DNA of 64,000 bases from Escherichia coli (GTDB lineage: Bacteria; Pseudomonadota; Gammaproteobacteria; Enterobacterales; Enterobacteriaceae). Below, piece by piece: positions 17,557 to 55,072 of the stretch (position 1 is its first letter; every line of letters begins with the position of its first letter). The notes under the pieces were generated by a model. That model made no database searches and had not been told where the DNA came from. It worked only from the letters and a program-made list of their open reading frames with translations. Where the stretch lies: the NCBI RefSeq assembly GCF_022846255.1, contig NZ_AP025682.1. One strand, 5' to 3'. The translations under genes were made by a program, and so were the position numbers.

Positions 17557-18480
17557 TTAACGCGTTCGCTGCGAAAGCACCTGCTGCTTATCCAGCTTTT
17601 GCACCAGCGGCTGCACCACTTTATCCCCATGCTGACCAAAGTATTGATACAGCGTATCGGACGCGCTTTTAGTCAGCACCATAATCTCAATGCGCCGGTT
17701 GCCCGCGCTTTGCGGATTTTTCGCGTCCAGCAGCATCTGGTCCGCCATTGCGCTCACCTGCATCACTTTATCTTCCGGCATTCCTGCCTCTTCCAGCACC
17801 CGACGAGCCGAAAGCGCGCGGTCACCCGAAAGGTTCCAGTTGTTGTAGATATTGTTTTTGTAGGCCATCGCATCGGTATGCCCGGTAATAATAATTTTGT
17901 TATCGAGCGAGTCGAACACTGGCGCGAGCTCCACCAGCAGCGTTTTAAAGAACGGCATAATCTGCGCGCTGCCGCGTTCGAACATATTGCGATTCTGGTC
18001 GTCTTTAATCAGCACGCGTAATCCCTGCGGGACAATCTCCATCTCCAGATTCGCTTCCATATGCGCATCACGGGCAATGGTGTTGATGCTGGTTGCCAGC
18101 TCACCAAGCTCGGTGGCGGATTTCTTCTTCAGCAGCGCCGTTTTCTCGTTGACGTCGCGCGCTTTTTTCTCCGTCTCTTCCGGCACCGCCACGGTGGCAG
18201 GTTTTGACGGATGAGACGGGCTGATTTTATTTAACGGCGACAGCCCACCACCGTTAAAAATCGACTGCCCGTGCAGCGCGGCGATAATGCTTTCACGCTC
18301 GGATTTACTGACGCTATTGACAATCCACAGCGTCATAAATAGCGCCATCATCGCCAGGGTAAAGTCGGCGAACGCTACCTTCCACGCCCCGCCGTGGTGC
18401 CCGGCATGATTCTTTTTGATCTGCCGCCGGACGATGGTGGTTTTTGCCCCACGCTCGCGGCGGTTGCCCGTCTTTCTCAT
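17557..18480 (-). CDS. lafU: Lateral flagellar motor stator protein LafU (MotB-like, OmpA C-terminal domain); mbhA counterpart
   Basis: Single TM segment (WKVAFADFTLAMMALFMTLWIV) plus OmpA-like peptidoglycan-binding C-terminus; start set at MRKTGNRRE just after the lafT stop. Confidence 0.85.
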   Translation of the reverse strand: MRKTGNRRERGAKTTIVRRQIKKNHAGHHGGAWKVAFADFTLAMMALFMTLWIVNSVSKSERESIIAALHGQSIFNGGGLSPLNKISPSHPSKPATVAVPEETEKKARDVNEKTALLKKKSATELGELATSINTIARDAHMEANLEMEIVPQGLRVLIKDDQNRNMFERGSAQIMPFFKTLLVELAPVFDSLDNKIIITGHTDAMAYKNNIYNNWNLSGDRALSARRVLEEAGMPEDKVMQVSAMADQMLLDAKNPQSAGNRRIEIMVLTKSASDTLYQYFGQHGDKVVQPLVQKLDKQQVLSQRTR

Positions 18481-18482
18481 GC

Positions 18483-19346
18483 TTATTCTTGCTCCAGCAT
18501 CGCATTCACCCATGCATCGAGGTTGGCGAAGGTCGGTTTGGACGCCAGATGCAGCAGCTTACGCCCGGCGTCCACCGCCAGCAGCGTCGGTTTGCCGCCC
18601 GCCTGGGCCACCAGCACGGTACGCACACACTCCAGCAGCGAATGTTCCGCCCGCGCCTGCTGTTCCATGGCGTTGGCGAGCGGGTCCATCAGGCAGTAGC
18701 AAATAAACACGCCTAAAAATGTCCCCACCAGCGCTGCCGCCACTTTCAGGCCAATCAGGGCGATAGAACCGTCAATTGACTGCATGGTGATGATGATGCC
18801 CAGCACTGCCGCGCAAATACCAAATCCCGGCATCGCTTCGGCGGTCCGTTGCAGCGAGCGTGACGGCGTTAACAGCGACTCTTCAGCGGTGTCCAGCTCC
18901 TGATCGAGAATGCCTTCCAGTTCATGGGCGTCGATTTTACCCATCGCCATCAGGCGAAAGTTATCGGCAATAAAAGTCACCAGCCGCTTCTGGGTTAACA
19001 CCAGCGGGTATTTCTGGAAAACGGTACTCTCTTCCGGCTGCTCAATATGCTGATCCAACATCCGCAGACCGCCGTTTTGTACCATTTCAAGCAACTCATA
19101 CAGGCACATTAATAGCTGGCGCTGAAACTCCGGCCCGAGCTGTTTTTTACTGATCACGCCTTTAATTTGATGGGCAATCTCTTTCAGCACATGTTTCGGG
19201 TTCCCAATAATCATCGCCCCGAAACCCGCACCCAAAATAATGATCATTTCCGCCGGTTGCCAGATAGCCACTAATTGGCCGCCCGCTTCAAAATAACCGC
19301 CAAATACGCAGCCGAGCACCACCAGTAAACCTAATATTTTTTGCAT
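18483..19346 (-). CDS. lafT: Lateral flagellar motor stator protein LafT (MotA-like), 287 aa
   Basis: Four-TM MotA/TolQ/ExbB-type sequence immediately upstream of the MotB-like gene. Confidence 0.85.
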   Translation of the reverse strand: MQKILGLLVVLGCVFGGYFEAGGQLVAIWQPAEMIIILGAGFGAMIIGNPKHVLKEIAHQIKGVISKKQLGPEFQRQLLMCLYELLEMVQNGGLRMLDQHIEQPEESTVFQKYPLVLTQKRLVTFIADNFRLMAMGKIDAHELEGILDQELDTAEESLLTPSRSLQRTAEAMPGFGICAAVLGIIITMQSIDGSIALIGLKVAAALVGTFLGVFICYCLMDPLANAMEQQARAEHSLLECVRTVLVAQAGGKPTLLAVDAGRKLLHLASKPTFANLDAWVNAMLEQE

Positions 19347-19358: not shown

Positions 19359-20078
19359 TTAATTCGGATAGACAAAATCACGAATTTTCTGCGCGATCTG
19401 TTTATTCAGTTGACAAATTCGGGCCTCGGTTAGCCCTAATACCAGCGCAATCTCTTTGAGATTCATCTCATGCTGGTAATACATGGAGAGGATCAGTTGC
19501 TCTTTTTCGCTTAATTGTGAAAGCGCGTGTTGCAGCATTTTCTGCGTGACAAACTGATCTTCCAGGTCTCTGCCAGCAAGCGGAATACCCGGTCCTTCGC
19601 CGTTCAGCAGTTCGTCCAGGCTGGCGAGCGTTTCCGCCCCTTCCAGTTGCTGATATTCGAGATAATCTTCATGCGAGATCCCTTCCTCAGCCAGCTCCTG
19701 CCACTCCGGTTCGTGCCCCAGTTTTTTACGCGTTTCGCGAATCAGGTCTTTCATCTGATGATATTTCTGTCGCAGCTGGCGCGGTCGCCAGTCGAGAGCG
19801 CGCAGCTCATCCAGGATCGCACCGCGAATACGGTGCACGGCATAGCCCGCAAAACCTTCGTCCGGCAGCCCATAGCGACGAATGGCCTTCAACAGCCCCA
19901 TTAACGCCGTTTGTTCCATATCCTGACGGTCAATAATGCAATTACACTGCGGGGCAAGGTGCCGCACCACTTTACGCACCAACGGTAAATAGGCCTGCAA
20001 GTAGTGGCTCTCCTGCTGCGGGGTTAATACCGGCGCGGCAGCAAATTCTTCTGACTCGAATAATACGTCCTGTAGCAT
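19359..20078 (-). CDS. lafS: Lateral flagellar sigma-28 (FliA-family) LafS, 239 aa
   Basis: Sigma-70 family regions 2 and 4 recognisable (e.g. LKEIALVLGLTEARICQLNKQ HTH). Confidence 0.85.
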   Translation of the reverse strand: MLQDVLFESEEFAAAPVLTPQQESHYLQAYLPLVRKVVRHLAPQCNCIIDRQDMEQTALMGLLKAIRRYGLPDEGFAGYAVHRIRGAILDELRALDWRPRQLRQKYHQMKDLIRETRKKLGHEPEWQELAEEGISHEDYLEYQQLEGAETLASLDELLNGEGPGIPLAGRDLEDQFVTQKMLQHALSQLSEKEQLILSMYYQHEMNLKEIALVLGLTEARICQLNKQIAQKIRDFVYPN

Positions 20079-20097: not shown

Positions 20098-20565
20098 TTA
20101 CTGGAAGACCACTTTTTTCACCAGTAAATCCTTATACGGTGCGCTCATTTTGCGACGCTGAAGATCTTTCTTTAACGCATCCGAAATCAGTTTGCGGATG
20201 GCAGATATTTTCATGCCGCGCAAATCTTCAAATTTCATTTCCGTCAGGCATTCAACTGCAATACTTTGATACAGAGGCTCCTGATGTTTTATTTTTTCCG
20301 CCTCTTTGTCACTGGCGACCACCATCACTAATTCCGCCGACAAATAATGATCCGCGCCGTTGTTGTCATGCAAAGTGACAATGGTTTCCGGCAGCGTCAC
20401 AAATACGCTCTTGCTCTCATCCAGAGCTTCCACCGATTCCGTTTGCGCGGCGGTAGTCGGTTTTCCTTTTCCGGCATAATGATGCCAGACACTCCATCCT
20501 GCTCCAGCGCCGACCACCAACGCCAGAACGGCGCTGACCACGCCTGCCACCACGATTTTCTTCAT
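20098..20565 (-). CDS. lafF: FliL-like basal-body-associated protein LafF, 155 aa
   Basis: N-terminal TM followed by FliL-like domain; position between the fliK-like gene and the sigma gene. Confidence 0.75.
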   Translation of the reverse strand: MKKIVVAGVVSAVLALVVGAGAGWSVWHHYAGKGKPTTAAQTESVEALDESKSVFVTLPETIVTLHDNNGADHYLSAELVMVVASDKEAEKIKHQEPLYQSIAVECLTEMKFEDLRGMKISAIRKLISDALKKDLQRRKMSAPYKDLLVKKVVFQ

Positions 20566-20572: not shown

Positions 20573-21634
20573 TTACACTTTGATCAAAACGGATTCGTTC
20601 TGTTGAAATTGAGGCGCATCATCAAGCTGTAAGGCGGCACTCACCTCTTCCTGCTGATGGCCCGACTGTTGTTGCTGCTGCGACTGCCCTTCGGAGGAGA
20701 CCTGTACGTTCACCTCCATAAAATTTTGCGCCGTCAGATGCTGGCGGAGATCGTCGCTAAACTGCTGTAACGCGCGGCAAACTTCACTTTGGTTCGCGCC
20801 GATGTGCACCATCAGTTTGCCGTTGTCGAGTTGTACGGCGATCTCGAGCTTGCCAAGCGACGGTGGATCGAGACGGATGGTGGAGATCTGCTGTTGTTTG
20901 TTGAGCTGAAAGTGGATCTGATCTTTCAACAGCGTCGTCAGTTTTTCGCCCAGTTCGTCGATCGAAAGCGTGGCTGGTTTGGCGACAATCTCCTGATGAT
21001 CGCTGACCAGCTCCGGCGTCTTAACCTGCAACACCGCACGCGCAATAACCAGTTCGCTGTCCGACACTTTTTCCGTTTTACGCTCGACCTGCGGGCGCGC
21101 GTTCACACGGGTTAGTTCAGGTTTCGGGCGAGCTGGCTGTGTTGAGACGCGCGGCTGCGTCGGTGCAATGGCATGTAAATCTTCACTGGCGTAAGTCGCC
21201 AGTCTGGCCTGCTGTTCGGGTTTCGCCTGCGGCAACTGACCGATCAGCTCCTGCAACTGCGGCGGCAACGGCGTGAGTTCCTGCTGCTGCGTCGGGCGTT
21301 GCGCCGCGTTTTGCACCACCGCTTTCGTCAATTGCTGGATAACCGGCGATGTTGCGACGTTTCGCGGCTGCGGCGTGTCCTGATGCGGCGCGGCAGGTTG
21401 CGGAAGTAACAGCGCCATTAGCGCCTGCATCGCCACCGGATCGTTCTCCTGCGGGCGCGTCGCCTGTTGCTGACTGGTTTTTGCGCTATGAACGCGCTCC
21501 GCCACCGCCGCGACCGCCATTTTCGGCAGGGTAAACGCGGGCGCGTTTTCACTACTCACCGGCGGTAAAATATCCGCTTTCAGCGACGCCGTTTCCGCAA
21601 GTGTTCCGAGCGTGGCAAGCAATGCCGGATTCAT
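20573..21634 (-). CDS. lafE: Hook-length control protein LafE (FliK-like), 353 aa
   Basis: Pro/Gln-rich low-complexity middle and FliK-like C-terminal domain; conserved position. Confidence 0.7.
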   Translation of the reverse strand: MNPALLATLGTLAETASLKADILPPVSSENAPAFTLPKMAVAAVAERVHSAKTSQQQATRPQENDPVAMQALMALLLPQPAAPHQDTPQPRNVATSPVIQQLTKAVVQNAAQRPTQQQELTPLPPQLQELIGQLPQAKPEQQARLATYASEDLHAIAPTQPRVSTQPARPKPELTRVNARPQVERKTEKVSDSELVIARAVLQVKTPELVSDHQEIVAKPATLSIDELGEKLTTLLKDQIHFQLNKQQQISTIRLDPPSLGKLEIAVQLDNGKLMVHIGANQSEVCRALQQFSDDLRQHLTAQNFMEVNVQVSSEGQSQQQQQSGHQQEEVSAALQLDDAPQFQQNESVLIKV

Positions 21635-21942
21635 GACTTCTCCGAAAGTAAATTAACAATTGAGTAGGCCAGTACGCCTTCCTGATGCCGCTGATGCTGT
21701 TCCATACGCGCCTTCAACACTTCTGCACGCTGCTCGCGCCGTTTAATCAGGGCATTAAACGCGCCGTACAGCTGCGCCTTCACCGCACACAACTGCGCCG
21801 CGTCGGTTTCCGCCGCCACGTAATCGTGAAACTGGCGCATCAACTGCTGATGCAGTGCCGGAAGGCGTCGCCAGCGTTGCTTGTCGAGGGCTTCGTTCAT
21901 CGCTTCAACCAGCGCGAAAAGTTGCCTGCGTTGTTTTTCCAT
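21631..21942 (-). CDS. lafD: LafD, small helical protein in the FliT position (probable export chaperone)
   Basis: Start set at MEKQRRQL, 5 nt after the lafC stop (ORF track extends into lafC); function by position only. Confidence 0.55.
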   Translation of the reverse strand: MEKQRRQLFALVEAMNEALDKQRWRRLPALHQQLMRQFHDYVAAETDAAQLCAVKAQLYGAFNALIKRREQRAEVLKARMEQHQRHQEGVLAYSIVNLLSEKS

Positions 21943-21946: not shown

Positions 21947-22339
21947 TTAACCCAGCTTGCCCGAAAGCCCTTCCCAGCCTTCACGCAGGTTGCTTAAGAT
22001 CAGCATCACTTCATCGATTTTCTCTGCCGACAGTTCGCCGCTGGCCTCATACAAGCGATACACACAGTGGTCATAGAGGCGCGAAAGGTTGACCACCAGC
22101 TCGCCGCCAGTTTCAAACTCCAGCGAACTGGTGAGCGCATTGAGAATGTCGATGCATTTATTGATGCTCTGGGCTTTCTTCTCGAAACGCCGCCCTTCAA
22201 TATGGCTTTTGGCGCGTTCCAGCTCGTCCATCAGACCAGAAAACAGCACCAGCACCAGTTCCAGAGGCGATGCCGCCGCAGTACGCGCCGCGAGATCGAT
22301 CTCTTTATATTGCGAATAGCCGTCCTGTACTTGGTACAT
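21947..22339 (-). CDS. lafC: Flagellin-specific chaperone LafC (FliS-like), 130 aa
   Basis: FliS-like sequence (MYQVQDGYSQYKEIDLAARTAAASPLELVLVLFSGL...). Confidence 0.85.
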   Translation of the reverse strand: MYQVQDGYSQYKEIDLAARTAAASPLELVLVLFSGLMDELERAKSHIEGRRFEKKAQSINKCIDILNALTSSLEFETGGELVVNLSRLYDHCVYRLYEASGELSAEKIDEVMLILSNLREGWEGLSGKLG

Positions 22340-22361: not shown

Positions 22362-23678
22362 TTACGCGAATGCCGCCATGCTGGCTTTCATGGTGTACAC
22401 CTCGACCAGCGTGTTGGTGTACTCCTCGAGATAACGGTCGTAGTTGGCGTTATAGGTATCAGTAAGCTGATCGCCTTCGTCCTGAATTTTGCTCATCTGA
22501 TCGTCAATGTTCTGCTGGCGCAGGGTGATGATGCCGTTGCTGGAGTCCGTGTAGGTGTTAATCAGGTCGTCCATCTGTGCCACCATGCTGTTGTCGCCAA
22601 CGAAAATAGAGGTCAGACCGTCAGGATTTTTCGCCATTTCGTCGTTGAACTGGTCGGAGTCAATCTGTAAGTGGCCGTGAGAATCAAGCGTGATGCCATA
22701 GTCAACAATCGACACCCCGTTGTAGCTGGCATGGGCGATATCATCGAGCTGGTTCGCCAGTGAGCTGAGTCCGGCGTCACCCGCAAATACCCCGGCGCTG
22801 GTACTGTCATCACCGTGGGTGGTCAACGAATCAACCGTATCAATCAAGGTGTTATAAGCATCAACAAAGGTCTGTACTTTCTCCTGGCTGGCGCTGGAAT
22901 CTTCGCTGATGTTAAAGGTAGTGAGATCGCTGTCAGAATCGCTGACTTCGGTGAAAGTCATGGTGACGCCGGGGATCACATCATCAAAGGTATTGCTGCT
23001 ATTAGTGATCTCTGGCCCCGTGGCGCTGCCGAGATGAATAATCGCGTCCTGGGCGGAGGAAACATCCGTAGCAACAGGCGCGCTGGCGCTGTCGTTGCTG
23101 GCGTCATGCCCCGTTACGCTCACCGAAAATGCGCTCTGCGCCCCGGTGCTATCGGAGGTGAGCATAATCGTGGTGGTGCCGTCGGTTTTTACCAGTGCCG
23201 CCGACACGCCCGGATTGTCATCAGAGTCGTTAATCGCATTCACCAGTTCACTGGCGTCGATAAAACCGTCGCCGTCACCGTTCTGATCTGCCGCCGACAG
23301 ATCAATATCCATGGTGCTGTCGCCCATCGTCAGTTCGAAGGTGCCGGTAGCGGAAAAGGCGTCGTCGCCCATACTGAACGTGGTTTGCTGCCCCTGTGCC
23401 AGTTGCTCAACGAAAAATGAGTAGCTTCCCGCCTGCACCTGCGAGTTAGCGGAAACGGTCGCCGAGTCATTATTGCTGGTGGCGGCAAACGTCACCGGGC
23501 CGTCAGTATCGCTGTTCAGCGCGTCAACGGCGCTCTGAAAATCGCTCAACGCTGAGCTGAGCGAGTCCAGGCCGCTGCTTTCAGCATCCAGCTCGCTCTG
23601 CTTCTCCTGCAAATTGGCTGCCTGAGTGGCAACATCCGCATAAGCGATTTCTTGCGCAATGGTTCTTGGGTTGATCAT
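22362..23678 (-). CDS. lafB: Filament cap protein LafB (FliD / HAP2-like), 438 aa
   Basis: FliD-like N- and C-terminal heptad regions; first gene after a sigma54 promoter motif. Confidence 0.8.
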   Translation of the reverse strand: MINPRTIAQEIAYADVATQAANLQEKQSELDAESSGLDSLSSALSDFQSAVDALNSDTDGPVTFAATSNNDSATVSANSQVQAGSYSFFVEQLAQGQQTTFSMGDDAFSATGTFELTMGDSTMDIDLSAADQNGDGDGFIDASELVNAINDSDDNPGVSAALVKTDGTTTIMLTSDSTGAQSAFSVSVTGHDASNDSASAPVATDVSSAQDAIIHLGSATGPEITNSSNTFDDVIPGVTMTFTEVSDSDSDLTTFNISEDSSASQEKVQTFVDAYNTLIDTVDSLTTHGDDSTSAGVFAGDAGLSSLANQLDDIAHASYNGVSIVDYGITLDSHGHLQIDSDQFNDEMAKNPDGLTSIFVGDNSMVAQMDDLINTYTDSSNGIITLRQQNIDDQMSKIQDEGDQLTDTYNANYDRYLEEYTNTLVEVYTMKASMAAFA

Positions 23679-23710: not shown

Positions 23711-23725
23711 GCAAAAGGCGTGCCA
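23711..23725 (-). promoter_or_regulatory. Sigma54 (-24/-12) promoter motif upstream of lafB
   Basis: Minus strand reads TGGCACgccttTTGC, a perfect match to TGGCAC-N5-TTGC; predicted start site about 20 nt upstream of the lafB ATG, which has a GGAG Shine-Dalgarno. Confidence 0.6.
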
Positions 23726-23842
23726 ATAATTTTTATGTGAATAATCAATAAATTGAAAAAGGGGCGGAAATGGTGTTTCCGGTCTGGCGGAAAAAAGCCT
23801 GCCGCTGAAAGCACAACACCGCCCGCAGGCGGTGTTGTTCGT

Positions 23843-23883: not shown

Positions 23884-24798
23884 TTACTGCAGCAGGCTGG
23901 AAACCATGCTGGACATGCTGTTGGACTGTTTCAGCATGGTGATGCCGGTCTGCATCAGCACCTGCTGTTTAGTCATGTTGGACGCTTCCGTCGCGTAGTC
24001 GGTATCCATAATGTTACCGATAGCGACTTCGGTGTTGTCCTGCATACTGGTCAGGTTATTAGCGGTGTCGTTCAGACGGTTGATAGACGCCCCCAGCTTG
24101 GACTGGATCTGCGAAACATCATCCATCGCGGTAGAAATGCTGGTGATCATCTGGTTAGCCGAGCCAGACGCAGTCAGCTCAGTACCGCCAGAAACGCCTG
24201 CGGTGCCAGTGGTGTCAGCCTGATCCGCACTGAAGGAGTTGCTGATAGCAGAAAGATCCGTCACCAGGGTATTCAGCTGGCTTGAAATATTCACGGTCAT
24301 GGTGTCGGAAGATTCCGCGCCCACCTGGAAAGTTACTGCGCTCTGGAACAGACCGTCAGTACCGGTGTTGCTGGTACCGGAAACACCGAACAGGTTGGTG
24401 CCGCCGTAAGTGGTGTTTTGCAGCATGTCAGACATCTGCTGACCCAGTTCATCGTATTCGTCCTGCATCGCCTGCAGATCGTCGTCGCTGTAGGTGCCGT
24501 TCGCTGCCTGAGTTGACAGGTCTTTCATACGACCCAGCACATCAGACATTTCGTCGAACATGCTGTCAGCGGTTTGCAGCATCGCGGTGGCATCATTGAT
24601 GTTGCTCAGCGCCACACCCATACCGCTGGACTGTGCTGTCAGACGGTTAGCAATTTGTTTGCCTGCGGCGTCATCGGCAGAAGAGTTAATCCGGTTACCC
24701 GTTGCCAGGCGTTCCATAGATGTAGACAGAGAAGAGCTGCTTTTACTGATTGCATTAACGGCGGCCATTGAGGCGTTATTGGTGTTAATAGATAACAT
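23884..24798 (-). CDS. lafA: Lateral flagellin LafA, about 304 aa
   Basis: Conserved flagellin N-terminus (MLSINTNNASMAAVNAISKS...) and C-terminus (...LMQTGITMLKQSNSMSSMVSSLLQ); start at 24798 has an AAGGAG Shine-Dalgarno; short Ser/Thr-rich variable domain. Confidence 0.9.
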   Translation of the reverse strand: MLSINTNNASMAAVNAISKSSSSLSTSMERLATGNRINSSADDAAGKQIANRLTAQSSGMGVALSNINDATAMLQTADSMFDEMSDVLGRMKDLSTQAANGTYSDDDLQAMQDEYDELGQQMSDMLQNTTYGGTNLFGVSGTSNTGTDGLFQSAVTFQVGAESSDTMTVNISSQLNTLVTDLSAISNSFSADQADTTGTAGVSGGTELTASGSANQMITSISTAMDDVSQIQSKLGASINRLNDTANNLTSMQDNTEVAIGNIMDTDYATEASNMTKQQVLMQTGITMLKQSNSMSSMVSSLLQ

Positions 24799-25232
24799 GA
24801 TACTGCTCCTTGGGATTAATCGTTTTCGTTTCGATACCCTGTAAAAACGACACCTCAGGAGCAAACTTAAAATCGCCGTTAAAATTTTTTCGCCACGTAT
24901 TATCCGATGCCACTTTTAGCTAAAAAAAGCAGAGGTTAAATTCAGATAAAAAGATTATTAGCAATATCTGCCACATGGCCAGGAATCAAAATATGTCTTT
25001 ATCAAATGCTTGATATAGTTAAGATTGTCATCAATTAACGCGTTTTCTTCTCAATGTACTGATGCCAAAATTTACATTGCGTTGCAAATAGTACACGTTT
25101 AGCTATTGTGCCTGTCCTGTCATTTCGTTACATTTCCACGCCATATAGTGATTAAGAATAATCCTATTACCATAAAATATTAATTATCACGCAGAAAAAT
25201 CATCTTCTCAGGGACGTATAAGACTGTGCTTT

Positions 25233-47469: not shown

Positions 47470-48456
47470 TCAGGAGAAAACTTCGATACCGTGCTTGCGC
47501 ATGGAGGCCAGTCGATAGCGCAGTGCGCGCGGGGTAATGCCTAACAGGTCGGCAATTTTGCTGCGGTTGCCCTGATATTTACGCATCAGGTCGGCGATAT
47601 ATTGATACTGCGCACTTCGTCCGGCCTGGCCTAAATCGCTGGTTTCCGCAACAGATACGGAGGGCTGAACAGGCCATTGCAGTTCACTGTGATCGGCAAC
47701 GTCTATTTCCGGCAGGCCTAAGGCATCCGGGAAAATCACGCCGTCGCGGTTTAAAATCATTCCCCGCTGAATGGCGTTCTCCAGCTGACGCACGTTGCCG
47801 GGCCAGCGGTAATTGAGCAGCGCCCGGCGGGTAGATTCTGAAAGGGTGATATTTTTCACCAGCACCGTGGAGTATTTTTTAATAAATGACTCTGCCAATG
47901 GAATAATATCGTTCAGACGTTCACGCAGCGGCGGCATGGTAATAGGAATTACCGCCAGACGATAATAGAGATCTTCACGAAAACGCCCGGCGGCAACTTC
48001 CTGTTCAAGGTTTTTATTGGTACAGGCAATCAGGCGAAAATTGAGTTTAATTTGTCGGTTGCTGCCTAATCGCTCAACCTGTTGTTCCTGCAACACGCGT
48101 AATATTTTGGCCTGAAGCGCCAGCGGCATATCGCCAATTTCATCGAGTAATAAGGTGCCGTTATTCGCCAGTTCCATTTTTCCTGGCACGCTGGCAATTG
48201 CGCCGGTAAATGCACCTTTGTCGTAGCCAAATAAGGTAGATTCCAGCATATTTTCCGGGATCGCCGCGCAGTTCACGCCGACATAGGGTGCGCTTTCATT
48301 TTCACCAAAGGCTACGGTGTGAATATATTTTGCCACGCACTCTTTGCCCGCGCCGGTTTCGCCCTGAATGAGCACCGGCACGTTAAATGCGGCGACACGC
48401 TTTGCCAGAGTAAAAGCGTTAATGCTGGAAGCGGCAGTTGCAATAAGTTCAGACAT
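47470..48456 (-). CDS. lafK: Sigma54-dependent transcriptional activator LafK, 328 aa, AAA+ domain plus C-terminal HTH, no receiver domain
   Basis: Walker A GETGAGKE, GAFTGA motif (ESTLFGYDKGAFTGA), Walker B LLLDEIGDMP, FREDLYYRL, C-terminal HTH (NRSKIADLLGITPRALRYRL); in-frame stop 25 codons upstream of the ATG. Confidence 0.85.
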   Translation of the reverse strand: MSELIATAASSINAFTLAKRVAAFNVPVLIQGETGAGKECVAKYIHTVAFGENESAPYVGVNCAAIPENMLESTLFGYDKGAFTGAIASVPGKMELANNGTLLLDEIGDMPLALQAKILRVLQEQQVERLGSNRQIKLNFRLIACTNKNLEQEVAAGRFREDLYYRLAVIPITMPPLRERLNDIIPLAESFIKKYSTVLVKNITLSESTRRALLNYRWPGNVRQLENAIQRGMILNRDGVIFPDALGLPEIDVADHSELQWPVQPSVSVAETSDLGQAGRSAQYQYIADLMRKYQGNRSKIADLLGITPRALRYRLASMRKHGIEVFS

Positions 48457-48584
48457 AGGGTGAACGATATAAGTAGCGACATTAATCAGGATGTTCTGAA
48501 GCGTATCACCGGTGGGATTAACAAGTTCGAATTAAACGATAATAAAAATATTATTTGTTTATAAACAATGAGTTATAACCGCAG

Positions 48585-48662
48585 GCCGGATAAAGCGTTT
48601 ACGCCGCATCCGGCAATCGTGCACCGGTGCCTGATGCGACGCTGCGCGTCTTATCAGGCCTA
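48585..48662. repeat. Pair of REP elements in the lafK-lfiM divergent intergenic region
   Basis: GCCGGATAAAGCGTTTACGCCGCATCCGGC and GCCTGATGCGACGCTGCGCGTCTTATCAGGCCTAC. Confidence 0.6.
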
Positions 48663-48842
48663 CAGTTCGTGCAATGTTTTATGACGATGCCCTATATCTC
48701 GCCCGTTAATAATTTAATTATTTTTTCACCCTATTAATAATTTGCCCCTTTCACTCCCCCTCTATTTAATACCTCACCTTGTGTCACTGCCGGATTTGCG
48801 TGCACAAAATCGCCCATACCATTACAGCAGAGAAAGTAAGCC

Positions 48843-49694
48843 ATGCTGAAGTACAGTAAAACGCCAGGCATCTTTAAATTAGAAGGTAATCGGCTCGGAC
48901 GCCCCTACCATCGCCTGCCGACCCTGTTTACGGGGAATTTTGACGTGATTGATTCGCATCTGGGCAGCTACTTTCTCAAAAAGCATCGCAGCAATATCAC
49001 CTTAAAAAAGATTGGCTGCGAAATGGATATTATTAATAAAAACGCCGAACTGATGGTTTCCCAGGTCGGGCATCTGGCGTTTGATATTGATCGCTCCTTA
49101 TTGTTAATGCTGCTGGGCAATTTTTATGGTCTGGAGTCCTCTCTCGAAGAGGCGAAAGACCATAATGGCCTGCCGACCAAAACCGAAACGCGGTTAAAAA
49201 ACCGCCTCGCGCTGGATATCTGCACGCTGATTTTTAATCTGCAAACCTCCGGTATTGCGCTGAAATTAAAGATGGACAGCAGCACGGTAATTACCCACTG
49301 GGCGTATCAATTAACCTTTACCCTTGCGGGCGATGAAGAGAGCAGCTTTCGTATTTTGCTCGACGACGCCCACACCGATTTTATTTTAAATCTGATCCGC
49401 CACAGCGAGCACAGTAAACCGCAGCAGGTGGCGAAATCGGTCAATAAACCGGCCCTGATTAAAGAAATCATCCGCTCCCTGCCGTTGACTCTGAACGTCA
49501 AAATCGCCGAGCTATCGATGAATGTCGCCGATCTGGCGCAGATAAAAGCCGGGGATATTTTACCCATTTCGCTGGGAGAAACGTTCCCGGTGGCGATTGG
49601 GCAATCTGAATTATTTAGCGCCCTGATTGTGGAAGACAAAGACAAACTGTTTTTGTCGGAGCTGGCGGGCAAGAATGAGAATAGCCATGAGTAA
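48843..49694 (+). CDS. lfiM: Switch protein LfiM (FliM-like), 283 aa
   Basis: FliM-like middle domain; first gene of the lfiMNPQR-lfhBA operon. Confidence 0.8.
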   Translation: MLKYSKTPGIFKLEGNRLGRPYHRLPTLFTGNFDVIDSHLGSYFLKKHRSNITLKKIGCEMDIINKNAELMVSQVGHLAFDIDRSLLLMLLGNFYGLESSLEEAKDHNGLPTKTETRLKNRLALDICTLIFNLQTSGIALKLKMDSSTVITHWAYQLTFTLAGDEESSFRILLDDAHTDFILNLIRHSEHSKPQQVAKSVNKPALIKEIIRSLPLTLNVKIAELSMNVADLAQIKAGDILPISLGETFPVAIGQSELFSALIVEDKDKLFLSELAGKNENSHE

Positions 49695-50058
49695 GCAAGA
49701 AGATATTTTAGCCGGGGATTTTGGCCTCACCGATGAAGTTGCGCCTGTCGCCAAATCCGCCGACGCCGAAACGCTGGTCACCCGCCTGGAAGACCGATTT
49801 TCCGACTCGATGACGCTACTGAAACGCATTCCGGTGACCTTAACGCTGGAAGTGTCGTCGGTGGAAATCATGTTAGCCGACCTGCTTAACATCGACGACG
49901 ACACGGTGATTGAACTGGATAAACTCGCCGGGGAGCCGCTGGATATTAAAGTGAACAATATCCTGCTGGGCAAAGCGGAAGTGGTGGTGGTCAACGAGAA
50001 GTACGGCCTGCGCGTGCTGGAATTTAACACCCGCGATATCAACGACCTGGCACCATGA
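49687..50058 (+). CDS. lfiN: Switch protein LfiN (FliN-like), about 123 aa
   Basis: SpoA/FliN-like C-terminus (VIELDKLAGEPLDIKVNNILLGKAEVVVVNEKYGLRVLE); start at MSKQEDIL overlaps the lfiM stop. Confidence 0.8.
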   Translation: MSKQEDILAGDFGLTDEVAPVAKSADAETLVTRLEDRFSDSMTLLKRIPVTLTLEVSSVEIMLADLLNIDDDTVIELDKLAGEPLDIKVNNILLGKAEVVVVNEKYGLRVLEFNTRDINDLAP

Positions 50059-50807
50059 AACGCCGTACTCAACTGACGCTGGGCCTGGCGCTGCTGGCGC
50101 TCGCCCCGCTGGCGCTCGCCCAGGGCGGCGATATCGCGCTGCTTAACGTGGTGACCCACGGCAACACTCAGGAGTACAGCGTCAAAATTCAGGTACTGAT
50201 TCTGATGACCCTCGTCGGTTTGCTGCCGACGATGGTGCTGATGATGACCTGCTTTACGCGCTTTATTATCGTGCTGTCGCTGCTGCGCCAGGCGCTGGGG
50301 CTGCAACAAACGCCGCCGAACCGCATTCTGATTGGTATTGCGCTCTCACTCACCCTGCTGGTAATGCGCCCCATCTGGCTCAATATTTACGACCACGCGG
50401 TAGTGCCGTTTGAAAACGATCAGATTACCCTGACAGATGCGTTAAGCACCGCCGCGACGCCGCTGAAACGCTTTATGCTGGCGCAGACCGACAAAAAAGC
50501 GATGGCGCAAATCATGACCATCGGCGGCGCGAAGGGCAATGCCGCCGACCAGGATCTCTCCATCGTGGTGCCCGCCTATGTACTGAGCGAGCTGAAAACC
50601 GCCTTCCAGATTGGCTTTATGATTTACATCCCGTTTCTGGTTATCGACCTGATTGTCGCCAGCGTATTGATGGCGATGGGGATGATGATGCTGTCGCCGC
50701 TGATTGTTTCGCTACCCTTTAAACTGATGCTGTTTGTGCTGATTGACGGCTGGTCGCTGACCATCGGCACGCTCACCACCAGCATTCGCGGGCTGGGGCT
50801 GGGCTGA
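50055..50807 (+). CDS. lfiP: Export apparatus protein LfiP (FliP-like), 250 aa
   Basis: Signal peptide plus conserved FliP TM core. Confidence 0.9.
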   Translation: MKRRTQLTLGLALLALAPLALAQGGDIALLNVVTHGNTQEYSVKIQVLILMTLVGLLPTMVLMMTCFTRFIIVLSLLRQALGLQQTPPNRILIGIALSLTLLVMRPIWLNIYDHAVVPFENDQITLTDALSTAATPLKRFMLAQTDKKAMAQIMTIGGAKGNAADQDLSIVVPAYVLSELKTAFQIGFMIYIPFLVIDLIVASVLMAMGMMMLSPLIVSLPFKLMLFVLIDGWSLTIGTLTTSIRGLGLG

Positions 50808-50809: not shown

Positions 50810-51082
50810 ATGTTGACCGTAGACGTAGCCGCCGACATTGTCGCCAGCGGCATTAAAGTAGTGATTTTGCTGGTTTCGGTACTGGTGGTGCCAAGCCTGC
50901 TGGTCGGCCTGCTGGTGAGCGTGTTCCAGGCGGTGACGCAGATTAACGAACAGACCCTGAGCTTTTTGCCAAGGCTGATTGTCACGCTGGTGGTGCTGGG
51001 CATGTGCGGCAAATGGATGATTATCCAGTTGCATGATCTCTGCATTCACCTGTTTACCCAGGCCGCGTTGCTGGTTCATTGA
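50810..51082 (+). CDS. lfiQ: Export apparatus protein LfiQ (FliQ-like), 90 aa
   Basis: Two-TM small protein with FliQ-like sequence. Confidence 0.85.
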   Translation: MLTVDVAADIVASGIKVVILLVSVLVVPSLLVGLLVSVFQAVTQINEQTLSFLPRLIVTLVVLGMCGKWMIIQLHDLCIHLFTQAALLVH

Positions 51083-51083: not shown

Positions 51084-51866
51084 ATGCGCACAAGCGACGT
51101 TACGCAACTGATGGATCTGGCGCTGGGGCTGTGGTTTCCCTTCGTGCGCATTATGGCGTTTCTGCGCTATATGCCGGTGCTGGATAACAGCGCCCTGACC
51201 GCGCGCGTGCGGATTATTTTGTCGCTGGCGCTGGCGATCATCATCACGCCGTTGATCCCCCATCCCATTCCCCACGACCTGCTTTCGCTCAATAGCCTGA
51301 TCCTGACGGTAGAGCAAATTTTATGGGGCATGTTGTTCGGGCTGATGTTTCAGTTTCTGTTTCTGGCGCTGCAACTGGCCGGGCAAATTCTCTCGTTCAA
51401 TATGGGGATGAGCATGGCGGTGATGAACGACCCGAGCAGCGGCGCATCGACCACTGTGCTGGCAGAGTTAATTAACGTTTACGCGATCCTGCTGTTTTTT
51501 GCCATGGACGGGCATCTGCTGCTGGTAAGCGTGCTGTATAAGGGTTTCACCTACTGGCCGATTGGCAACGCCCTGCATCCGCAAACCCTGCGCACCATCG
51601 CGCTGGCCTTTAGCTGGGTGCTGGCGTCGGCATCGCTGCTGGCGCTGCCGACCACTTTTATCATGCTGATTGTGCAGGGCTGCTTTGGCCTGCTCAACCG
51701 CATTGCGCCGCCGCTGAACCTTTTTTCTCTTGGCTTTCCTATCAACATGCTGGCGGGGCTGGTCTGCTTCGCCACCCTGCTCTACAACCTGCCGGATCAC
51801 TATCTGCATCTGGCGAATTTTGTGTTGCAGCAACTCGACGCGCTGAAAGGTCACTATGGCGGATAG
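51084..51866 (+). CDS. lfiR: Export apparatus protein LfiR (FliR-like), about 260 aa
   Basis: Polytopic membrane protein; start set at ATG 51084 just after the lfiQ stop. Confidence 0.85.
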   Translation: MRTSDVTQLMDLALGLWFPFVRIMAFLRYMPVLDNSALTARVRIILSLALAIIITPLIPHPIPHDLLSLNSLILTVEQILWGMLFGLMFQFLFLALQLAGQILSFNMGMSMAVMNDPSSGASTTVLAELINVYAILLFFAMDGHLLLVSVLYKGFTYWPIGNALHPQTLRTIALAFSWVLASASLLALPTTFIMLIVQGCFGLLNRIAPPLNLFSLGFPINMLAGLVCFATLLYNLPDHYLHLANFVLQQLDALKGHYGG

Positions 51867-52995
51867 CAGCAGCGAAGAAAAAACAGAGAAACCCTCGGCG
51901 CAAAAGCTGCGTAAAGCGCGTGAAGAGGGGCAGCTACCGCGCTCGAAGGATATGGGGCTGGCGGCGAGCCTGTTTGCAGCGTTTGTGGTGATCTCCAGTA
52001 GTTTTCCGTGGTATGCCGATTTTGTGCGCGAGAGTTTTATCAGCGTGCATCAGTACGCACAGGAGATTAATAACCCGCAGGTGATCGGTCAGTTTCTGCG
52101 CCATCACCTGTTAATTCTCGGCAAGTTTATCCTTACGTTGCTGCCGATGCCCGCCGCCGCACTGCTCTCCTCACTGGTGCCCGGCGGCTGGCTGTTTCTG
52201 CCGAAAAAAATCCTCCCGGATTTCAGCAAAATCAGCCCGTTAAAAGGCATTGGGCGACTGTTTTCCAGCGAACATCTGGCGGAAACGGGGAAGATGACAG
52301 TGAAGTCGGTGGTGGTGCTGGTAATGCTGTGGGTAAGCCTGCGCAATAACTTTGCCGCCTTTCTCGGCCTGCAGGCGCTGCCGTTCAAACTGGCGATGAA
52401 TGATGGATTATCGCTCTACGCCAGCGTGATGCGCAACTTTGTCATCCTGTTTATCTTCTTTGCGTTAATCGACGTGCCGCTGGCGAAAGCCCTGTTCACC
52501 AAAGGGCTGAAGATGACCAAGCAGGAGCTGAAAGAAGAGTACAAAAATCAGGAAGGCAAGCCGGAAGTGAAGGCGCGCGTGCGGCGGCTGCAACGGCAAC
52601 TGGCGATGGGGCAAATTCGCAAAGTGGTGCCGAAAGCCAACGTGGTGATCACCAACCCGACCCACTACGCCGTGGCGTTACAGTATGACTCATCACGTGC
52701 CGCCGCACCGTTTGTGGTGGCGAAAGGCACCGATGAAATCGCCCTCTATATTCGCCAGGTCGCCACTGAAAATCAGGTGGAAGTGGTGGAGTTCCCGCGA
52801 CTCGCGCGCTCGGTTTACTACACCACCCAGGTGAACCAGCAAATTCCGTTTCAGCTTTACCGGGCCATCGCCCACGTTCTGACCTACATCCTGCAAATGA
52901 AACACTGGCGCGAGGGCGCACAGCCGCGCCCGGCCCTGAACAGACATATTTCCATTCCCAAAGAGGTACTTAAACTGGATGGCGAAAACAACTAA
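51856..52995 (+). CDS. lfhB: Export apparatus protein LfhB (FlhB-like), 379 aa
   Basis: FlhB-like sequence including the NPTH autocleavage motif (VVITNPTHYAVAL). Confidence 0.9.
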   Translation: MADSSSEEKTEKPSAQKLRKAREEGQLPRSKDMGLAASLFAAFVVISSSFPWYADFVRESFISVHQYAQEINNPQVIGQFLRHHLLILGKFILTLLPMPAAALLSSLVPGGWLFLPKKILPDFSKISPLKGIGRLFSSEHLAETGKMTVKSVVVLVMLWVSLRNNFAAFLGLQALPFKLAMNDGLSLYASVMRNFVILFIFFALIDVPLAKALFTKGLKMTKQELKEEYKNQEGKPEVKARVRRLQRQLAMGQIRKVVPKANVVITNPTHYAVALQYDSSRAAAPFVVAKGTDEIALYIRQVATENQVEVVEFPRLARSVYYTTQVNQQIPFQLYRAIAHVLTYILQMKHWREGAQPRPALNRHISIPKEVLKLDGENN

Positions 52996-55072
52996 ATCGT
53001 TCCTCGCGCCGCTGCGCGGCGGCAATCTCGGCGTGCCGTTGGTGATCCTGTGTATTCTGGCGATGGTTATTCTGCCGCTGCCGCCTGCGCTGCTGGATAT
53101 TCTGTTCACCTTCAACATTGTGCTGGCGGTGATGGTGCTGCTGGTGGCCGTGTCGGCGAAAAGGCCGCTGGAATTCAGCCTGTTCCCGACCATTTTGCTG
53201 ATCACCACCTTAATGCGTCTGACGCTTAACGTTGCTTCTACGCGCGTGGTGCTGCTACACGGGCATCTCGGCGCGGGCGCGGCGGGTAAGGTGATTGAGT
53301 CGTTTGGTCAGGTGGTGATTGGCGGCAACTTTGTCGTCGGTTTCGTGGTATTTATCATCCTGATGATCATCAACTTTATCGTCGTAACCAAGGGGGCCGA
53401 GCGTATTTCCGAGGTTTCTGCCCGCTTTACCCTGGACGCGATGCCCGGCAAACAGATGGCGATTGACGCCGATCTTAACGCCGGGTTGATCAACCAGACG
53501 CAGGCGCAAACCCGGCGTAAAGATGTCGCCAGCGAGGCCGATTTCTACGGCGCAATGGACGGGGCATCAAAATTTGTGCGCGGGGACGCCATCGCCGGGA
53601 TGATGATTCTGGCGATCAACCTGATCGGCGGCGTCTGTATCGGCATCTTCAAATACAACCTGAGCGCCGACGCCGCCTTCCAGCAATATGTGCTGATGAC
53701 TATCGGCGATGGGCTGGTGGCGCAAATCCCTTCCCTGCTGCTCTCCACCGCGGCGGCGATTATCGTCACCCGCGTCAGCGATAACGGTGATATCGCCCAT
53801 GACGTGCGTAATCAGTTGCTGGCAAGCCCGTCGGTTCTCTACACCGCCACTGGAATTATGTTCGTGCTGGCGGTGGTGCCGGGAATGCCGCATTTCCCGT
53901 TCCTGATGTTCAGCGCCCTGCTTGGTTTTACCGGCTGGCGGATGAGCAAGCGCCCGCAAGCGGCGGAGGCGGAAGAGAAAAGCCTCGAAACGCTAACCCG
54001 TACGATGACAGAAACCAGCGAGCAACAGGTCAGTTGGGAAACTATTCCGCTGATCGAACCTATCAGTTTAAGCCTCGGCTACAAACTGGTGGCGCTGGTG
54101 GATAAAGCGCAGGGCAACCCGCTCACCCAGCGTATTCGCGGCGTACGTCAGGTGATTTCCGACGGCAACGGCGTGCTGCTGCCGGAGATCCGTATTCGGG
54201 AAAACTTCCGTCTCAAGCCCAGCCAGTACGCCATTTTCATCAACGGCATTAAGGCTGATGAAGCGGATATTCCGGCGGATAAACTGATGGCCCTGCCCTC
54301 CAGCGAAACCTACGGCGAGATTGACGGCGTACTGGGGAATGACCCGGCATATGGGATGCCGGTCACCTGGATTCAGCCTGCGCAGAAAGCGAAGGCGCTG
54401 AATATGGGGTATCAGGTGATCGACAGCGCCAGCGTGATTGCCACCCATGTGAACAAGATTGTGCGCAGCTATATTCCTGACCTCTTTAACTATGACGATA
54501 TTACGCAGTTGCATAACCGCCTGTCGTCGATGGCACCGCGACTGGCGGAAGATTTGAGCGCGGCACTCAATTACAGCCAATTGCTGAAAGTGTACCGGGC
54601 GCTGCTGACCGAAGGCGTTTCCCTGCGCGATATCGTCACCATCGCCACCGTGCTGGTCGCCAGTAGTGCGGTGACCAAAGATCATATTCTGCTGGCGGCA
54701 GATGTGCGCCTGGCGCTGCGGCGCAGCATTACCCATCCGTTCGTTCGCAAGCAGGAGCTGACGGTGTATACGCTGAATAATGAGCTGGAAAATCTGCTGA
54801 CCAACGTGGTGAATCAGGCGCAACAGGCCGGCAAAGTGATGCTCGACAGCGTGCCAGTGGACCCGAATATGCTCAACCAGTTCCAGAGTACGATGCCGCA
54901 GGTAAAAGAGCAGATGAAAGCGGCGGGGAAAGATCCGGTGCTGCTGGTGCCTCCGCAGCTGCGCCCTTTGCTGGCGCGCTATGCAAGGTTGTTTGCGCCG
55001 GGGCTGCATGTGCTGTCGTATAACGAAGTGCCGGATGAGTTGGAGTTGAAGATAATGGGGGCGTTGAGTTGA
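52979..55072 (+). CDS. lfhA: Export gate protein LfhA (FlhA-like; fhiA counterpart), 697 aa
   Basis: FlhA-like N-terminal TM domain and large cytoplasmic domain, full length. Confidence 0.92.
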   Translation: MAKTTKSFLAPLRGGNLGVPLVILCILAMVILPLPPALLDILFTFNIVLAVMVLLVAVSAKRPLEFSLFPTILLITTLMRLTLNVASTRVVLLHGHLGAGAAGKVIESFGQVVIGGNFVVGFVVFIILMIINFIVVTKGAERISEVSARFTLDAMPGKQMAIDADLNAGLINQTQAQTRRKDVASEADFYGAMDGASKFVRGDAIAGMMILAINLIGGVCIGIFKYNLSADAAFQQYVLMTIGDGLVAQIPSLLLSTAAAIIVTRVSDNGDIAHDVRNQLLASPSVLYTATGIMFVLAVVPGMPHFPFLMFSALLGFTGWRMSKRPQAAEAEEKSLETLTRTMTETSEQQVSWETIPLIEPISLSLGYKLVALVDKAQGNPLTQRIRGVRQVISDGNGVLLPEIRIRENFRLKPSQYAIFINGIKADEADIPADKLMALPSSETYGEIDGVLGNDPAYGMPVTWIQPAQKAKALNMGYQVIDSASVIATHVNKIVRSYIPDLFNYDDITQLHNRLSSMAPRLAEDLSAALNYSQLLKVYRALLTEGVSLRDIVTIATVLVASSAVTKDHILLAADVRLALRRSITHPFVRKQELTVYTLNNELENLLTNVVNQAQQAGKVMLDSVPVDPNMLNQFQSTMPQVKEQMKAAGKDPVLLVPPQLRPLLARYARLFAPGLHVLSYNEVPDELELKIMGALS

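Follow-up and report, generated by a model that had tools for sequence, protein, structure and literature searches.

The Flag-2 system of Escherichia coli has been on record since 2005 (Ren et al. 2005, cited through PMC6993521 and PMC4637896), and thousands of genomes have been surveyed for it. Its core comprises 39 genes in three clusters, lfhAB-lfiRQPNM-lafK-lfiEFGHIJ, lfgNMABCDEFGHIJKL and lafWZABCDEFSTU (PMC6993521), and effector-like cargo has been reported in the regions VR1 or VR2 of some Flag-2 loci (De Maayer et al.). Low-temperature expression of the Yersinia enterocolitica Flag-2 is cited in PMC11420993. Here we analyze a 64,000-bp stretch of E. coli DNA (NZ_AP025682.1, assembly GCF_022846255.1; hereafter the window), in which a Flag-2 locus extends over positions 17557–55072 (37,516 bp, ~37.5 kb), from the end of lafU to the end of lfhA on the open reading frame (ORF) map of positions 15–58 kb, with dinB (16431–17486) and yafL (55170–55919) as its immediate neighbours. 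Its identity is near certain: these genes are the known Flag-2 locus of E. coli, a second set of flagellar genes of the lateral type, in the form of an intact allele. The system is already known, is in a common state and is already annotated in this genome. We consider it probable that this intact allele is governed by a three-tier cascade and that its product is restricted to particular conditions.

Flag-2 is related to the lateral (Laf) systems of Vibrio parahaemolyticus, Aeromonas hydrophila and Plesiomonas shigelloides, with which the window locus shares a lateral-type flagellin, LafU/LafT stators, a dedicated sigma-28, the same operon blocks and the sigma-54 activator LafK, the last reported to be missing from the Plesiomonas cluster. 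It differs from them in lacking motY and maf-5 and in having LafZ and LafW. Its LfgJ is 99 amino acids (aa) long and has no muramidase domain, compared to 328 aa in Plesiomonas, and the two-domain FlgJ (rod-binding plus muramidase) of V. parahaemolyticus and Plesiomonas was not found here. Laf systems of the Vibrio/Aeromonas type produce many lateral filaments, induced by surfaces or viscosity, that power swarming. A role in swarming is proven in those organisms (for the related lateral cluster of Plesiomonas, PMC4481668) and is putative in E. coli.

The Flag-2 locus and its alleles

Each Flag-2 protein of E. coli 042 (NC_017626.1) was compared with the window by tblastn, and families were assigned with NCBIfam and Pfam. 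All 39 core genes were found, colinear and full length, and VR1, located between lfiJ and lfgN, contains only three flagellin-modification genes (lafV, a glycosyltransferase gene and a TagD-like cytidylyltransferase gene). The total of 42 ORFs over 17557–55072 agrees with the original prediction of about 42 genes in about 37.5 kb between dinB and yafL, and the single, full-length matches colinear with 042 bear out its claim that the gene order is that of described Flag-2 systems. VR2 is empty, no cargo genes are present in this copy, and no insertion sequence (IS) element was found within 17557–55072. The signature genes without a Flag-1 counterpart, lafK, lafW and lafZ, are all present, and their products are 96.6–98.2% identical to the 042 proteins. 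The NCBIfam matches that bore out the families covered the full profiles, and LafA, LafU, MotA, FliA, FlgC, FlgE, FlgH, FlgI, FliI, FliH, FliF, FliP and FliR were matched as equivalogs above cutoff. At the thresholds used, LafD, LafW, LfgN, LafV, the glycosyltransferase and LfiM had no NCBIfam match, and LafV and LafW had none in Pfam. The G+C content of the Flag-2 block is 0.54–0.59, compared to 0.45–0.53 in the flanks, which are ordinary E. coli chromosome, 99.0% identical to E. coli genomes.

The encoded parts include an export gate (LfhAB and LfiPQR), an ATPase complex (LfiHIJ), an MS ring with its adaptor (LfiF and LfiE), a C ring (LfiGMN), a rod (LfgBCFG), a hook (LfgDE and LafE), P and L rings (LfgAHI) and junction proteins (LfgKL), as well as the flagellin LafA, the cap LafB, the chaperones LafC, LafD and LfgN, the anti-sigma factor LfgM, the ToxR-like LafZ, and LafW. 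The sigma-28 (LafS), sigma-54 activator (LafK) and MotAB-like stators (LafT and LafU) that had been claimed are likewise all encoded. No ORF proved to be split, as had also been proposed: the 042 proteins matched without frame breaks, and all 42 window proteins aligned gaplessly, end to end, with those of strains SMS-3-5 and 2014C-3075 (mean identity ~98%). Compared with 042, only in-frame length differences were seen (lafK +2, lfgD +3 and lafS +1 codons), and the lengths of these three genes are those of SMS-3-5. Shine-Dalgarno sequences precede most of the genes; those without one could be translationally coupled. Six proteins sampled from the window are already in NCBI (BDH34657, BDH34663, BDH34669, BDH34671, BDH34678 and a FlgE entry of unlisted accession); among them FliF and LafK bear explicitly lateral-flagellar names, and LfhA is called a 'flagellar export pore protein'.

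The 042 locus (NC_017626.1, 284682–323159) occupies the same chromosomal site, agrees with the window in the order and orientation of the 39 core genes, and has a VR1 identical in kind (lafV, glycosyltransferase, cytidylyltransferase), with amino acid identities of 90–100%. It differs from the window by a RelE/HTH toxin-antitoxin pair between lafW and lafZ, by rayT beside lfhA, and by per-gene nucleotide identities of 92–99% in a mosaic pattern. The lfgC gene, predicted to be frameshifted in 042 and uninterrupted over 143 codons here, is exactly so in the DNA alignment: 042 has a 2-bp GC insertion after nucleotide 45, which the window lacks, and flgC of 042 is flagged as frameshifted by PGAP. 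Of 5,426 complete E. coli genomes, 1,101 gave a match to a 60-nt probe placed across this insertion, and 042 alone did so without the 2-bp gap; among the other matches listed, 11 of 11 paired the 60 nt of the probe with 58 nt, and identity was in the 95–99% band for 1,097 records. The lesion thus seems private to 042, with an intact lfgC as the apparent default in E. coli and no special feature of the window copy. The ST131 strain EC958 also has an intact lfgC; its locus was reported to lack lafWZ, maf-5 and motY relative to 042 (PMC4637896), whereas lafW and lafZ are present in the window.

At least 80% of window positions 17000–41900 was found in one place in 1,264 of the 5,426 genomes (23%), in agreement with the published Flag-2 frequency of 24% (De Maayer et al.). 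K-12 MG1655 retains only pseudogenes of lfhA and lafU, between rayT and dinB, which substantiates the claim that two gene remnants occupy its site. These remnants map to window positions 53360–55067 and up to 18328, placing the deletion at ~18323–53363, and its junction shows a few bases of microhomology. Intactness was assessed in a convenience sample of five loci, those of 042, SMS-3-5, 2014C-3075, 2015C-4136CT1 and Z1323HEC0355. In SMS-3-5 (NC_010498.1) and 2014C-3075 (NZ_CP027447.1), all 42 genes are full length with no PGAP pseudogene flag in Flag-2. The architecture of 2014C-3075 is identical to that of the window, with yafL adjoining lfhA, nothing in VR2 and three genes in VR1, while SMS-3-5 differs in having rayT and, in VR1, two additional hypothetical genes; the alleles of both strains are 0–6% apart from those of the window per gene at the nucleotide level. 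In 2015C-4136CT1, lafZ-lafA has been lost next to IS1397, and in Z1323HEC0355 an IS1397 copy lies between lafA and lafB.

Gene by gene, nucleotide identity to the 042 and SMS-3-5 alleles varies between 92 and 100%, and this mosaicism accounts for the modest best overall identity of the locus (96.5–97.4%). An origin from a cryptic Escherichia clade, considered in view of the latter value, was rejected on the grounds that the flanks are 99% E. coli and that the mosaic is typical of a recombination-prone locus.

Promoters and a proposed cascade

Three sigma-54 sites located in operon leaders, two exact and one near-exact, were kept and then validated by cross-genus conservation; across the window, matches to the consensus with two mismatches or fewer were not enriched (79 found, 88 expected). 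The element of the lafB operon, TGGCACGCCTTTTGC (23711–23725, minus strand), fits the consensus exactly and lies 47 nt ahead of the lafB start; 042 and SMS-3-5 have it unchanged, and it also occurs in Citrobacter and Dryocola. That of the lfgB-J operon, TGGCACGGCGATTGC (36213–36227, minus strand), is also exact, lies 52 nt before lfgB and occurs in five of the five genera checked. The third, CGGCACGCTTATTGC (37872–37886, plus strand), has one mismatch, lies 50 nt before lafV in front of the lafV-glycosyltransferase pair, and is conserved.

Upstream of each of these elements is a palindromic dyad, GGAAA-N5-TTTCC, which we read as a candidate LafK enhancer site: GGAAACACCATTTCC (23766–23780, minus strand), 55 nt upstream of the lafB element; GGAAATAAAACTTCC (36279–36293, minus strand), inside the 5′ end of lfgA and 66 nt upstream of the lfgB element; and GGAAACGGATTTTCC (37817–37831, plus strand), 55 nt upstream of the lafV element. 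The spacings of 55 and 66 nt are one helical turn apart. Leaders from the Flag-2 loci of Citrobacter, Dryocola, Pseudescherichia and Scandinavium, fetched via their LfgJ proteins, were compared together with those of Escherichia. Element and dyad co-occurred in all 12 of the lfgB, lafB and lafV leaders examined, with spacings of 54–56 or 63–68 nt; the lafB pair is conserved across genera, and the lfgB spacing is 66–68 nt in all five. The dyad pattern was otherwise rare in the compared sequences (shuffle means 0.5–2). In 042 and SMS-3-5, sigma-54 elements and dyads are the same or nearly so, and the adjacent bases are variable. No description of a LafK binding site was found in the literature searched; one may exist nonetheless. 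A fourth copy of the dyad type, GGAAGACCGATTTTCC, lies at 49788–49803 inside lfiN with no sigma-54 element nearby.

Sigma-28-like promoters were recognized in three other leaders. The lafA site (24845–24870, minus strand; TTAAGTTT-N11-GTCGTTT) lies 72 nt before the start codon and is conserved in Citrobacter and Dryocola. The site for lfgK-lfgL-lafW (29533–29559, minus strand; TTAAGAAT-N12-GCCGCTT) lies 60 nt before the lfgK start and is conserved in 042, SMS-3-5, Citrobacter, Dryocola and Pseudescherichia. The lfgM-lfgN site (37009–37035, plus strand; TAAAGTTT-N11-AACCGCTT), 66 nt before lfgM, is identical in 042 and SMS-3-5 and has related sites in Citrobacter, Dryocola and Pseudescherichia. 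Across genera, 11 of 13 lafA, lfgK and lfgM leaders carry TTAAGttt-N11/12-GyCGyTTT, which resembles a sigma-28 promoter with a different −10 tail. No good site for the canonical E. coli FliA consensus, TAAAG-N14-GCCGATAA, was found before lafA, lfgK or lafT, and a variant −10 element is therefore proposed. Because the pattern was derived post hoc, a window-wide count of it is circular.

The divergent lafK/lfiM control region (48457–48842, 386 bp) has no sigma-54 site with correct spacing; none was convincing for either operon, the candidate CCGGATTTGCGTGCA being wrongly spaced. Its promoter-proximal ends are conserved, and its centre is entirely different in each of the window, 042 and SMS-3-5. 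The lack of a sigma-54 site and the conserved ends fit a class-1 role. In the middle of this region, an Rfam naRNA4/REP (repetitive extragenic palindromic) match covers 48584–48660. After lafA, a terminator-like hairpin with an 11-bp GC-rich stem (23813–23838, minus strand) is preceded by a REP hairpin, and the RNA of the 89-nt spacer folds at −46.3 kcal/mol (z = −3.8); the REP hairpin and GC stem are consistent with lafA being a single-gene unit. Generic scans for sigma-70 promoters and intrinsic terminators performed no better than shuffles and were not used to define operons.

We propose that in the first tier, the divergent operons lafK-lfiEFGHIJ-tagD and lfiMNPQR-lfhBA would be started by a signal other than sigma-54, possibly via LafZ. 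In the second, LafK would bind the dyads 55 or 66 bp upstream of the sigma-54 promoters and activate lfgB-J, lafBCDEF-lafS-lafTU and lafV-glycosyltransferase; since LafK has no receiver domain, it is probably controlled by its abundance. In the third, export of LfgM would free LafS to read the variant sigma-28 promoters (TTAAGttt-N12-GyCGyTTT) at lafA, lfgKL-lafW and lfgMN. The expected product would be a modified filament with a MotAB-type, presumably proton-driven motor, probably unresponsive to CheY and most likely made only under conditions not yet met in the laboratory. This hierarchy matches that reported for the V. parahaemolyticus and A. hydrophila Laf systems (PMC4481668).

More tentatively, Flag-2 of the Enterobacteriaceae in general may be a live, self-contained regulon, with a receiver-less LafK acting via a phased dyad enhancer of a kind not described before and LafS reading a variant −10 element (GyCGyTTT, not GCCGATAA), an idea to which we give a little less than even credence. 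If true, the variant −10 element would insulate Flag-2 from the Flag-1 FliA regulon, and expression of LafK alone could switch on intact copies, making the building of Flag-2 by E. coli directly testable.

Two inverted copies of a 132-bp, G+C-rich and palindrome-laden element (CCCTCACCCTAACCCTCTCCCC..., 91% identical) occupy the lfgJ-lfgK (29570–29701) and lafV-glycosyltransferase (38862–38993) spacers, and a short related piece follows lfhA (~55100–55130). In other strains, REP-type elements take its place in the lfgJ-lfgK spacer. A search for direct repeats yielded only a chance-level pair.

Selection and the case for a working flagellum

Pooled over 41 genes compared with 042, dS is 0.19 and dN 0.012, for a ratio of nonsynonymous to synonymous substitution rates (dN/dS) of 0.062, and no gene exceeds 0.23. 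The stators (0.015–0.019), FliG, FlgG and the flagellin are the most constrained. The checked motifs are intact, namely NPTH in LfhB, Walker A and B in LfiI, Walker A and GAFTGA in LafK, Asp39 in LafU, P173 and P222 in LafT, and the LfgH lipobox. Compared with five other E. coli alleles, 46 of 11,740 residues (0.4%) are private to the window allele, most of these substitutions being conservative. The most radical are LfhA L11P, LfiF G226D and E426G, LfgG Q100L, and P400L and P649L in the glycosyltransferase. Purifying selection, intact motifs and conserved promoters indirectly favour the view that this copy could make a second flagellar system, and on this sequence evidence we lean, by a small measure, towards a locus capable of building a working organelle.

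Several observations weigh on the other side. The locus has been deleted in about three quarters of E. coli, and in others it has suffered losses or IS insertions. The only E. coli Flag-2 experiment found in the papers searched was negative: in EC958, neither LafA (by western blot) nor Flag-2 motility was detected at 28 or 37°C, whether in LB or in soft agar (PMC4637896). Private missense changes such as LfhA L11P, LfiF G226D and LfgG Q100L are of a kind whose effect sequence cannot judge, and the sigma-28-like and dyad patterns were defined after the sites had been seen, with LafS and LafK as their putative binders. LfgJ is without a muramidase domain and LfiM without a CheY-binding peptide, LafT carries Q where MotA has R90, and no fliO or motY gene was found. 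These are family-level peculiarities, not lesions of this copy; those of LfiM and LafT suggest a motor that would not be switched by CheY-P and a modified charge interface between rotor and stator.

The negative EC958 result could mean that Flag-2 is a silent relic, intact on paper, unexpressed in E. coli and en route to loss, its completeness here being decay that has not yet struck. The locus is missing from ~77% of complete genomes, an lfhA′-lafU′ deletion scar was reported in 76 of 100 strains, and the sampled lesions are all different (the 042 frameshift, the IS1397-associated loss of lafZ-lafA, and IS1397 between lafA and lafB); such frequent deletion and IS hits argue for weak or intermittent selection. 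However, a pooled dN/dS of 0.06 at a dS of 0.19 over 41 genes is unexpected under neutral drift, promoter and enhancer elements are conserved across genera amid diverging surroundings, and two of the five sampled loci are wholly intact, as is the window copy. Taken together, the strength of purifying selection and the conservation of control elements speak for a use of the system somewhere in nature, and we regard a silent relic as unlikely. Inactivation of this particular copy, by a missense or regulatory defect invisible to ORF inspection, seems very unlikely: the few non-conservative changes among the 46 private substitutions and the REP element in the variable centre of the lafK/lfiM region offer candidates for such a defect, yet no private change falls within a checked catalytic or structural motif, and all promoter and dyad elements are intact, with the same or nearly the same sequence as in 042 and SMS-3-5.

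The apparatus might also be made mainly for protein export, adhesion or host interaction instead of motility, a role proposed for Y. enterocolitica and for the cargo genes of other Flag-2 loci, considering that a Flag-2 knock-out left motility of Y. enterocolitica unaffected and that some loci contain the effector-like cargo mentioned above (De Maayer et al.). The window copy has nothing in VR2 and only flagellin-modification genes in VR1, while the flagellin, the cap and hook-length control have all been kept. Moreover, LafT and LafU, among the most constrained proteins, retain the proton-path Asp and the prolines, a conservation that is sensible only with torque generation; a non-motility device is thus most improbable. 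The window locus provides a clean reference copy, free of IS elements, cargo and frameshifts and suited to asking whether and when E. coli uses Flag-2. What is added here is an analysis of selection and a conserved grammar of promoters and enhancers, and the predicted dyads and sigma-28 variants are offered as experimental handles.

Individual genes and flanking sequence

The genes of the lateral cluster lie on the minus strand except for lafZ. The stator genes are lafU (17557–18480), for a MotB-like protein of 307 aa (NF005273 LafU equivalog, 580 bits, cutoff 383) with the Asp equivalent to MotB D32 (FADF, D39), an OmpA-like C-terminus and a dN/dS of 0.019, and lafT (18483–19346), for a MotA-like protein of 287 aa (TIGR03818 MotA, 375 bits, above cutoff; dN/dS 0.015) in which P173 and P222 are conserved and the positions of MotA R90 and E98 are occupied by Q and D. 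They are followed by lafS (19359–20078; sigma-28, 239 aa; NF009091 FliA/WhiG equivalog, 442 bits), lafF (20098–20565; FliL-like, 155 aa, with weak FliL family matches and 97% identity to 042) and lafE (20573–21634; FliK-like hook-length control, 353 aa, 96% identical to 042 over its full length, with a YscP-type C-terminal domain). The products of lafD (21631–21942; 103 aa, 95% identical to 042, its 2014C-3075 ortholog being FliT in PGAP) and lafC (21947–22339; 130 aa, TIGR00208 FliS above cutoff, 100% identical to 042) are FliT-like and FliS chaperones, respectively. The cap gene lafB (22362–23678; 438 aa, FliD families, 98.6% to 042) precedes the flagellin gene lafA (23884–24798; 304 aa), which matches NF033376 LafA over residues 1–304 of 304 (667 bits, cutoff 440) as well as NF038071 (280 bits), and whose product is 100% identical to those of 042 and SMS-3-5. 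The ToxR/CadC-like regulator gene lafZ (25284–26126, plus strand; 280 aa; Pfam Trans_reg_C, 4e-13; 97% to 042) codes for a hydrophobic segment, GLMGLALAAAVIFIGSTVGY, read as a putative transmembrane helix. The signature protein LafW (26185–27162; 325 aa) belongs to no Pfam or NCBIfam family and is 96.6% identical to 042 LafW; its ortholog in 2014C-3075 is a 'flagellar hook-associated protein' in PGAP.

The lfg genes continue on the minus strand with lfgL (27179–28108; hook-filament junction, 309 aa; TIGR02550 FlgL above cutoff), lfgK (28123–29499; hook-associated protein 1, 458 aa; TIGR02492 FlgK, 351 bits) and lfgJ (29705–30004; rod-binding protein, 99 aa, PF10135 only). A truncation of LfgJ was considered and rejected: the full-length homologs found in Escherichia, Citrobacter, Leclercia, Scandinavium, Dryocola and Pseudescherichia are all similarly short (~95–125 aa, most 99–106) and have only PF10135. 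The ring genes are lfgI (30004–31104; P ring, 366 aa; NF003676 FlgI, 450 bits) and lfgH (31119–31784; L-ring lipoprotein, 221 aa, GTG start; NF009072 FlgH equivalog, 432 bits; lipobox LSGC). Next come lfgG (31866–32651; distal rod, 261 aa; TIGR02488 FlgG, 350 bits), lfgF (32730–33467; proximal rod, 245 aa; NF009280 FlgF, 317 bits), lfgE (33467–34669; hook, 400 aa; NF005286 FlgE equivalog, 533 bits), lfgD (34693–35406; hook cap, 237 aa, as in SMS-3-5; FlgD family, below the equivalog cutoff), the intact lfgC (35406–35837; proximal rod, 143 aa; TIGR01395 FlgC over residues 6–141, 132 bits, cutoff 102) and lfgB (35840–36175; proximal rod, 111 aa; TIGR01396 FlgB above cutoff). On the plus strand are lfgA (36257–36994; P-ring chaperone, 245 aa; TIGR03170 FlgA C-terminal domain), lfgM (37075–37353; anti-sigma-28, 92 aa; TIGR03824 FlgM above cutoff) and lfgN (37366–37794; FlgK/L chaperone, 142 aa, GTG start), the product of which is 96% identical to 042 FlgN and has orthologs with PF05130. 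Judged by eye, the N-terminal hydrophobic stretches of LfgI and LfgA fit signal peptides.

In VR1, lafV (37922–38851, plus strand) codes for a FliB-like flagellin lysine-N-methylase of 309 aa whose orthologs have PF27117 FliB_C and, in 2014C-3075, the PGAP name 'lysine-N-methylase'. The glycosyltransferase (39030–41474, plus strand; 814 aa) is exactly BDH34663.1 and matches Pfam Glycos_transf_2 (GT2; 1e-17) and, weakly, the TagB/F-like Glyphos_transf (0.0055). The TagD-like cytidylyltransferase (41584–41988, minus strand; 134 aa) scores 113 bits with TIGR01518 glycerol-3-phosphate cytidylyltransferase, below cutoff, and is above cutoff for TIGR00125.

Genes lfiJ to lafK are on the minus strand: lfiJ (41991–42425; export stalk, 144 aa; TIGR02473 FliJ above cutoff), lfiI (42428–43768; export ATPase, 446 aa, GTG start; NF005535 FliI equivalog, 772 bits; Walker A GSGVGKS and Walker B LLLVDS), lfiH (43761–44471; ATPase regulator, 236 aa; NF009925 FliH equivalog, 315 bits), lfiG (44475–45485; rotor/switch, 336 aa, 99% to 042; TIGR00207 FliG, 205 bits, just below cutoff), lfiF (45463–47109; MS ring, 548 aa; TIGR00206 FliF above cutoff) and lfiE (47114–47455; MS ring-rod adaptor, 113 aa; TIGR00205 FliE above cutoff). 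The product of lafK (47470–48456; 328 aa) belongs to AAA+ sigma-54 activator families; its AAA+ match starts at about residue 3, Walker A reads GETGAGKE, and the C-terminal segment SKIADLLGITPRALRYRL is read as a putative helix-turn-helix.

The remaining genes are on the plus strand. The short FliM-like C-ring protein of lfiM (48843–49694; 283 aa, 98% to 042) has Pfam FliMN_C only, and an N-terminal CheY-binding peptide of the LSQxEIDALL type was looked for in it and was absent. Downstream are lfiN (49687–50058; C ring, 123 aa; TIGR02480 FliN; 100% to 042), the export-gate genes lfiP (50055–50807; 250 aa; TIGR01103 FliP above cutoff), lfiQ (50810–51082; 90 aa; TIGR01402 FliQ, 80 bits, cutoff 88.9; 99% to 042) and lfiR (51084–51866; 260 aa; TIGR01400 FliR above cutoff), the export-switch gene lfhB (51856–52995; 379 aa, 97% identical to 042 FlhB over its full length, autocleavage motif NPTH at residue 267) and the export-gate gene lfhA (52979–55072; 697 aa, 98.7% identical to 042 FlhA over its full length), the exact protein being BDH34678.1. 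The L11P change of LfhA lies in the short cytoplasmic N-terminal tail, where all five other E. coli alleles compared have Leu.

The left flank contains ecpCDE, ykgJ, yagU, thrW, proAB, phoE, crl, frsA, gpt, pepD, prfH, rtcB, yafPON and dinB, and the right flank yafL, dpaA, yafJ, gmhA, fadE, ivy, yafV and an ISEc1 element. Compared with K-12, two elements are missing from positions 55073–56230 of the window: rayT, a gene for a REP-associated transposase, between yafL and lfhA, which 2014C-3075 also lacks, and, between dpaA and yafL, the toxin-antitoxin pair dinJ-yafQ. The rtcB-family gene for an RNA ligase (13894–15045) is intact, and just downstream lies what homology to STEC299 suggests is prfH (region ~13280–15045); K-12 has only ykfJ/prfH pseudogenes at this site and lacks ~1 kb (13808–14827). 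The yafO gene (15685–16083) is intact with 132 codons, and is a pseudogene in 042 and SMS-3-5. No island is attached to thrW, the tRNA-Thr(CGU) gene (5315–5390), whereas the closest genomes, such as STEC299, have a ~7-kb vat autotransporter island there. An Rfam IS009 RNA match covers 3874–4074. Next to yafV, at 62558–64000, an ISAs1-family (ISEc1-like) transposase gene (62568–63704) stands ahead of a second copy, of which the beginning is present, and the two share a 229-bp direct repeat of 97% identity (62558–62786 and 63772–64000).

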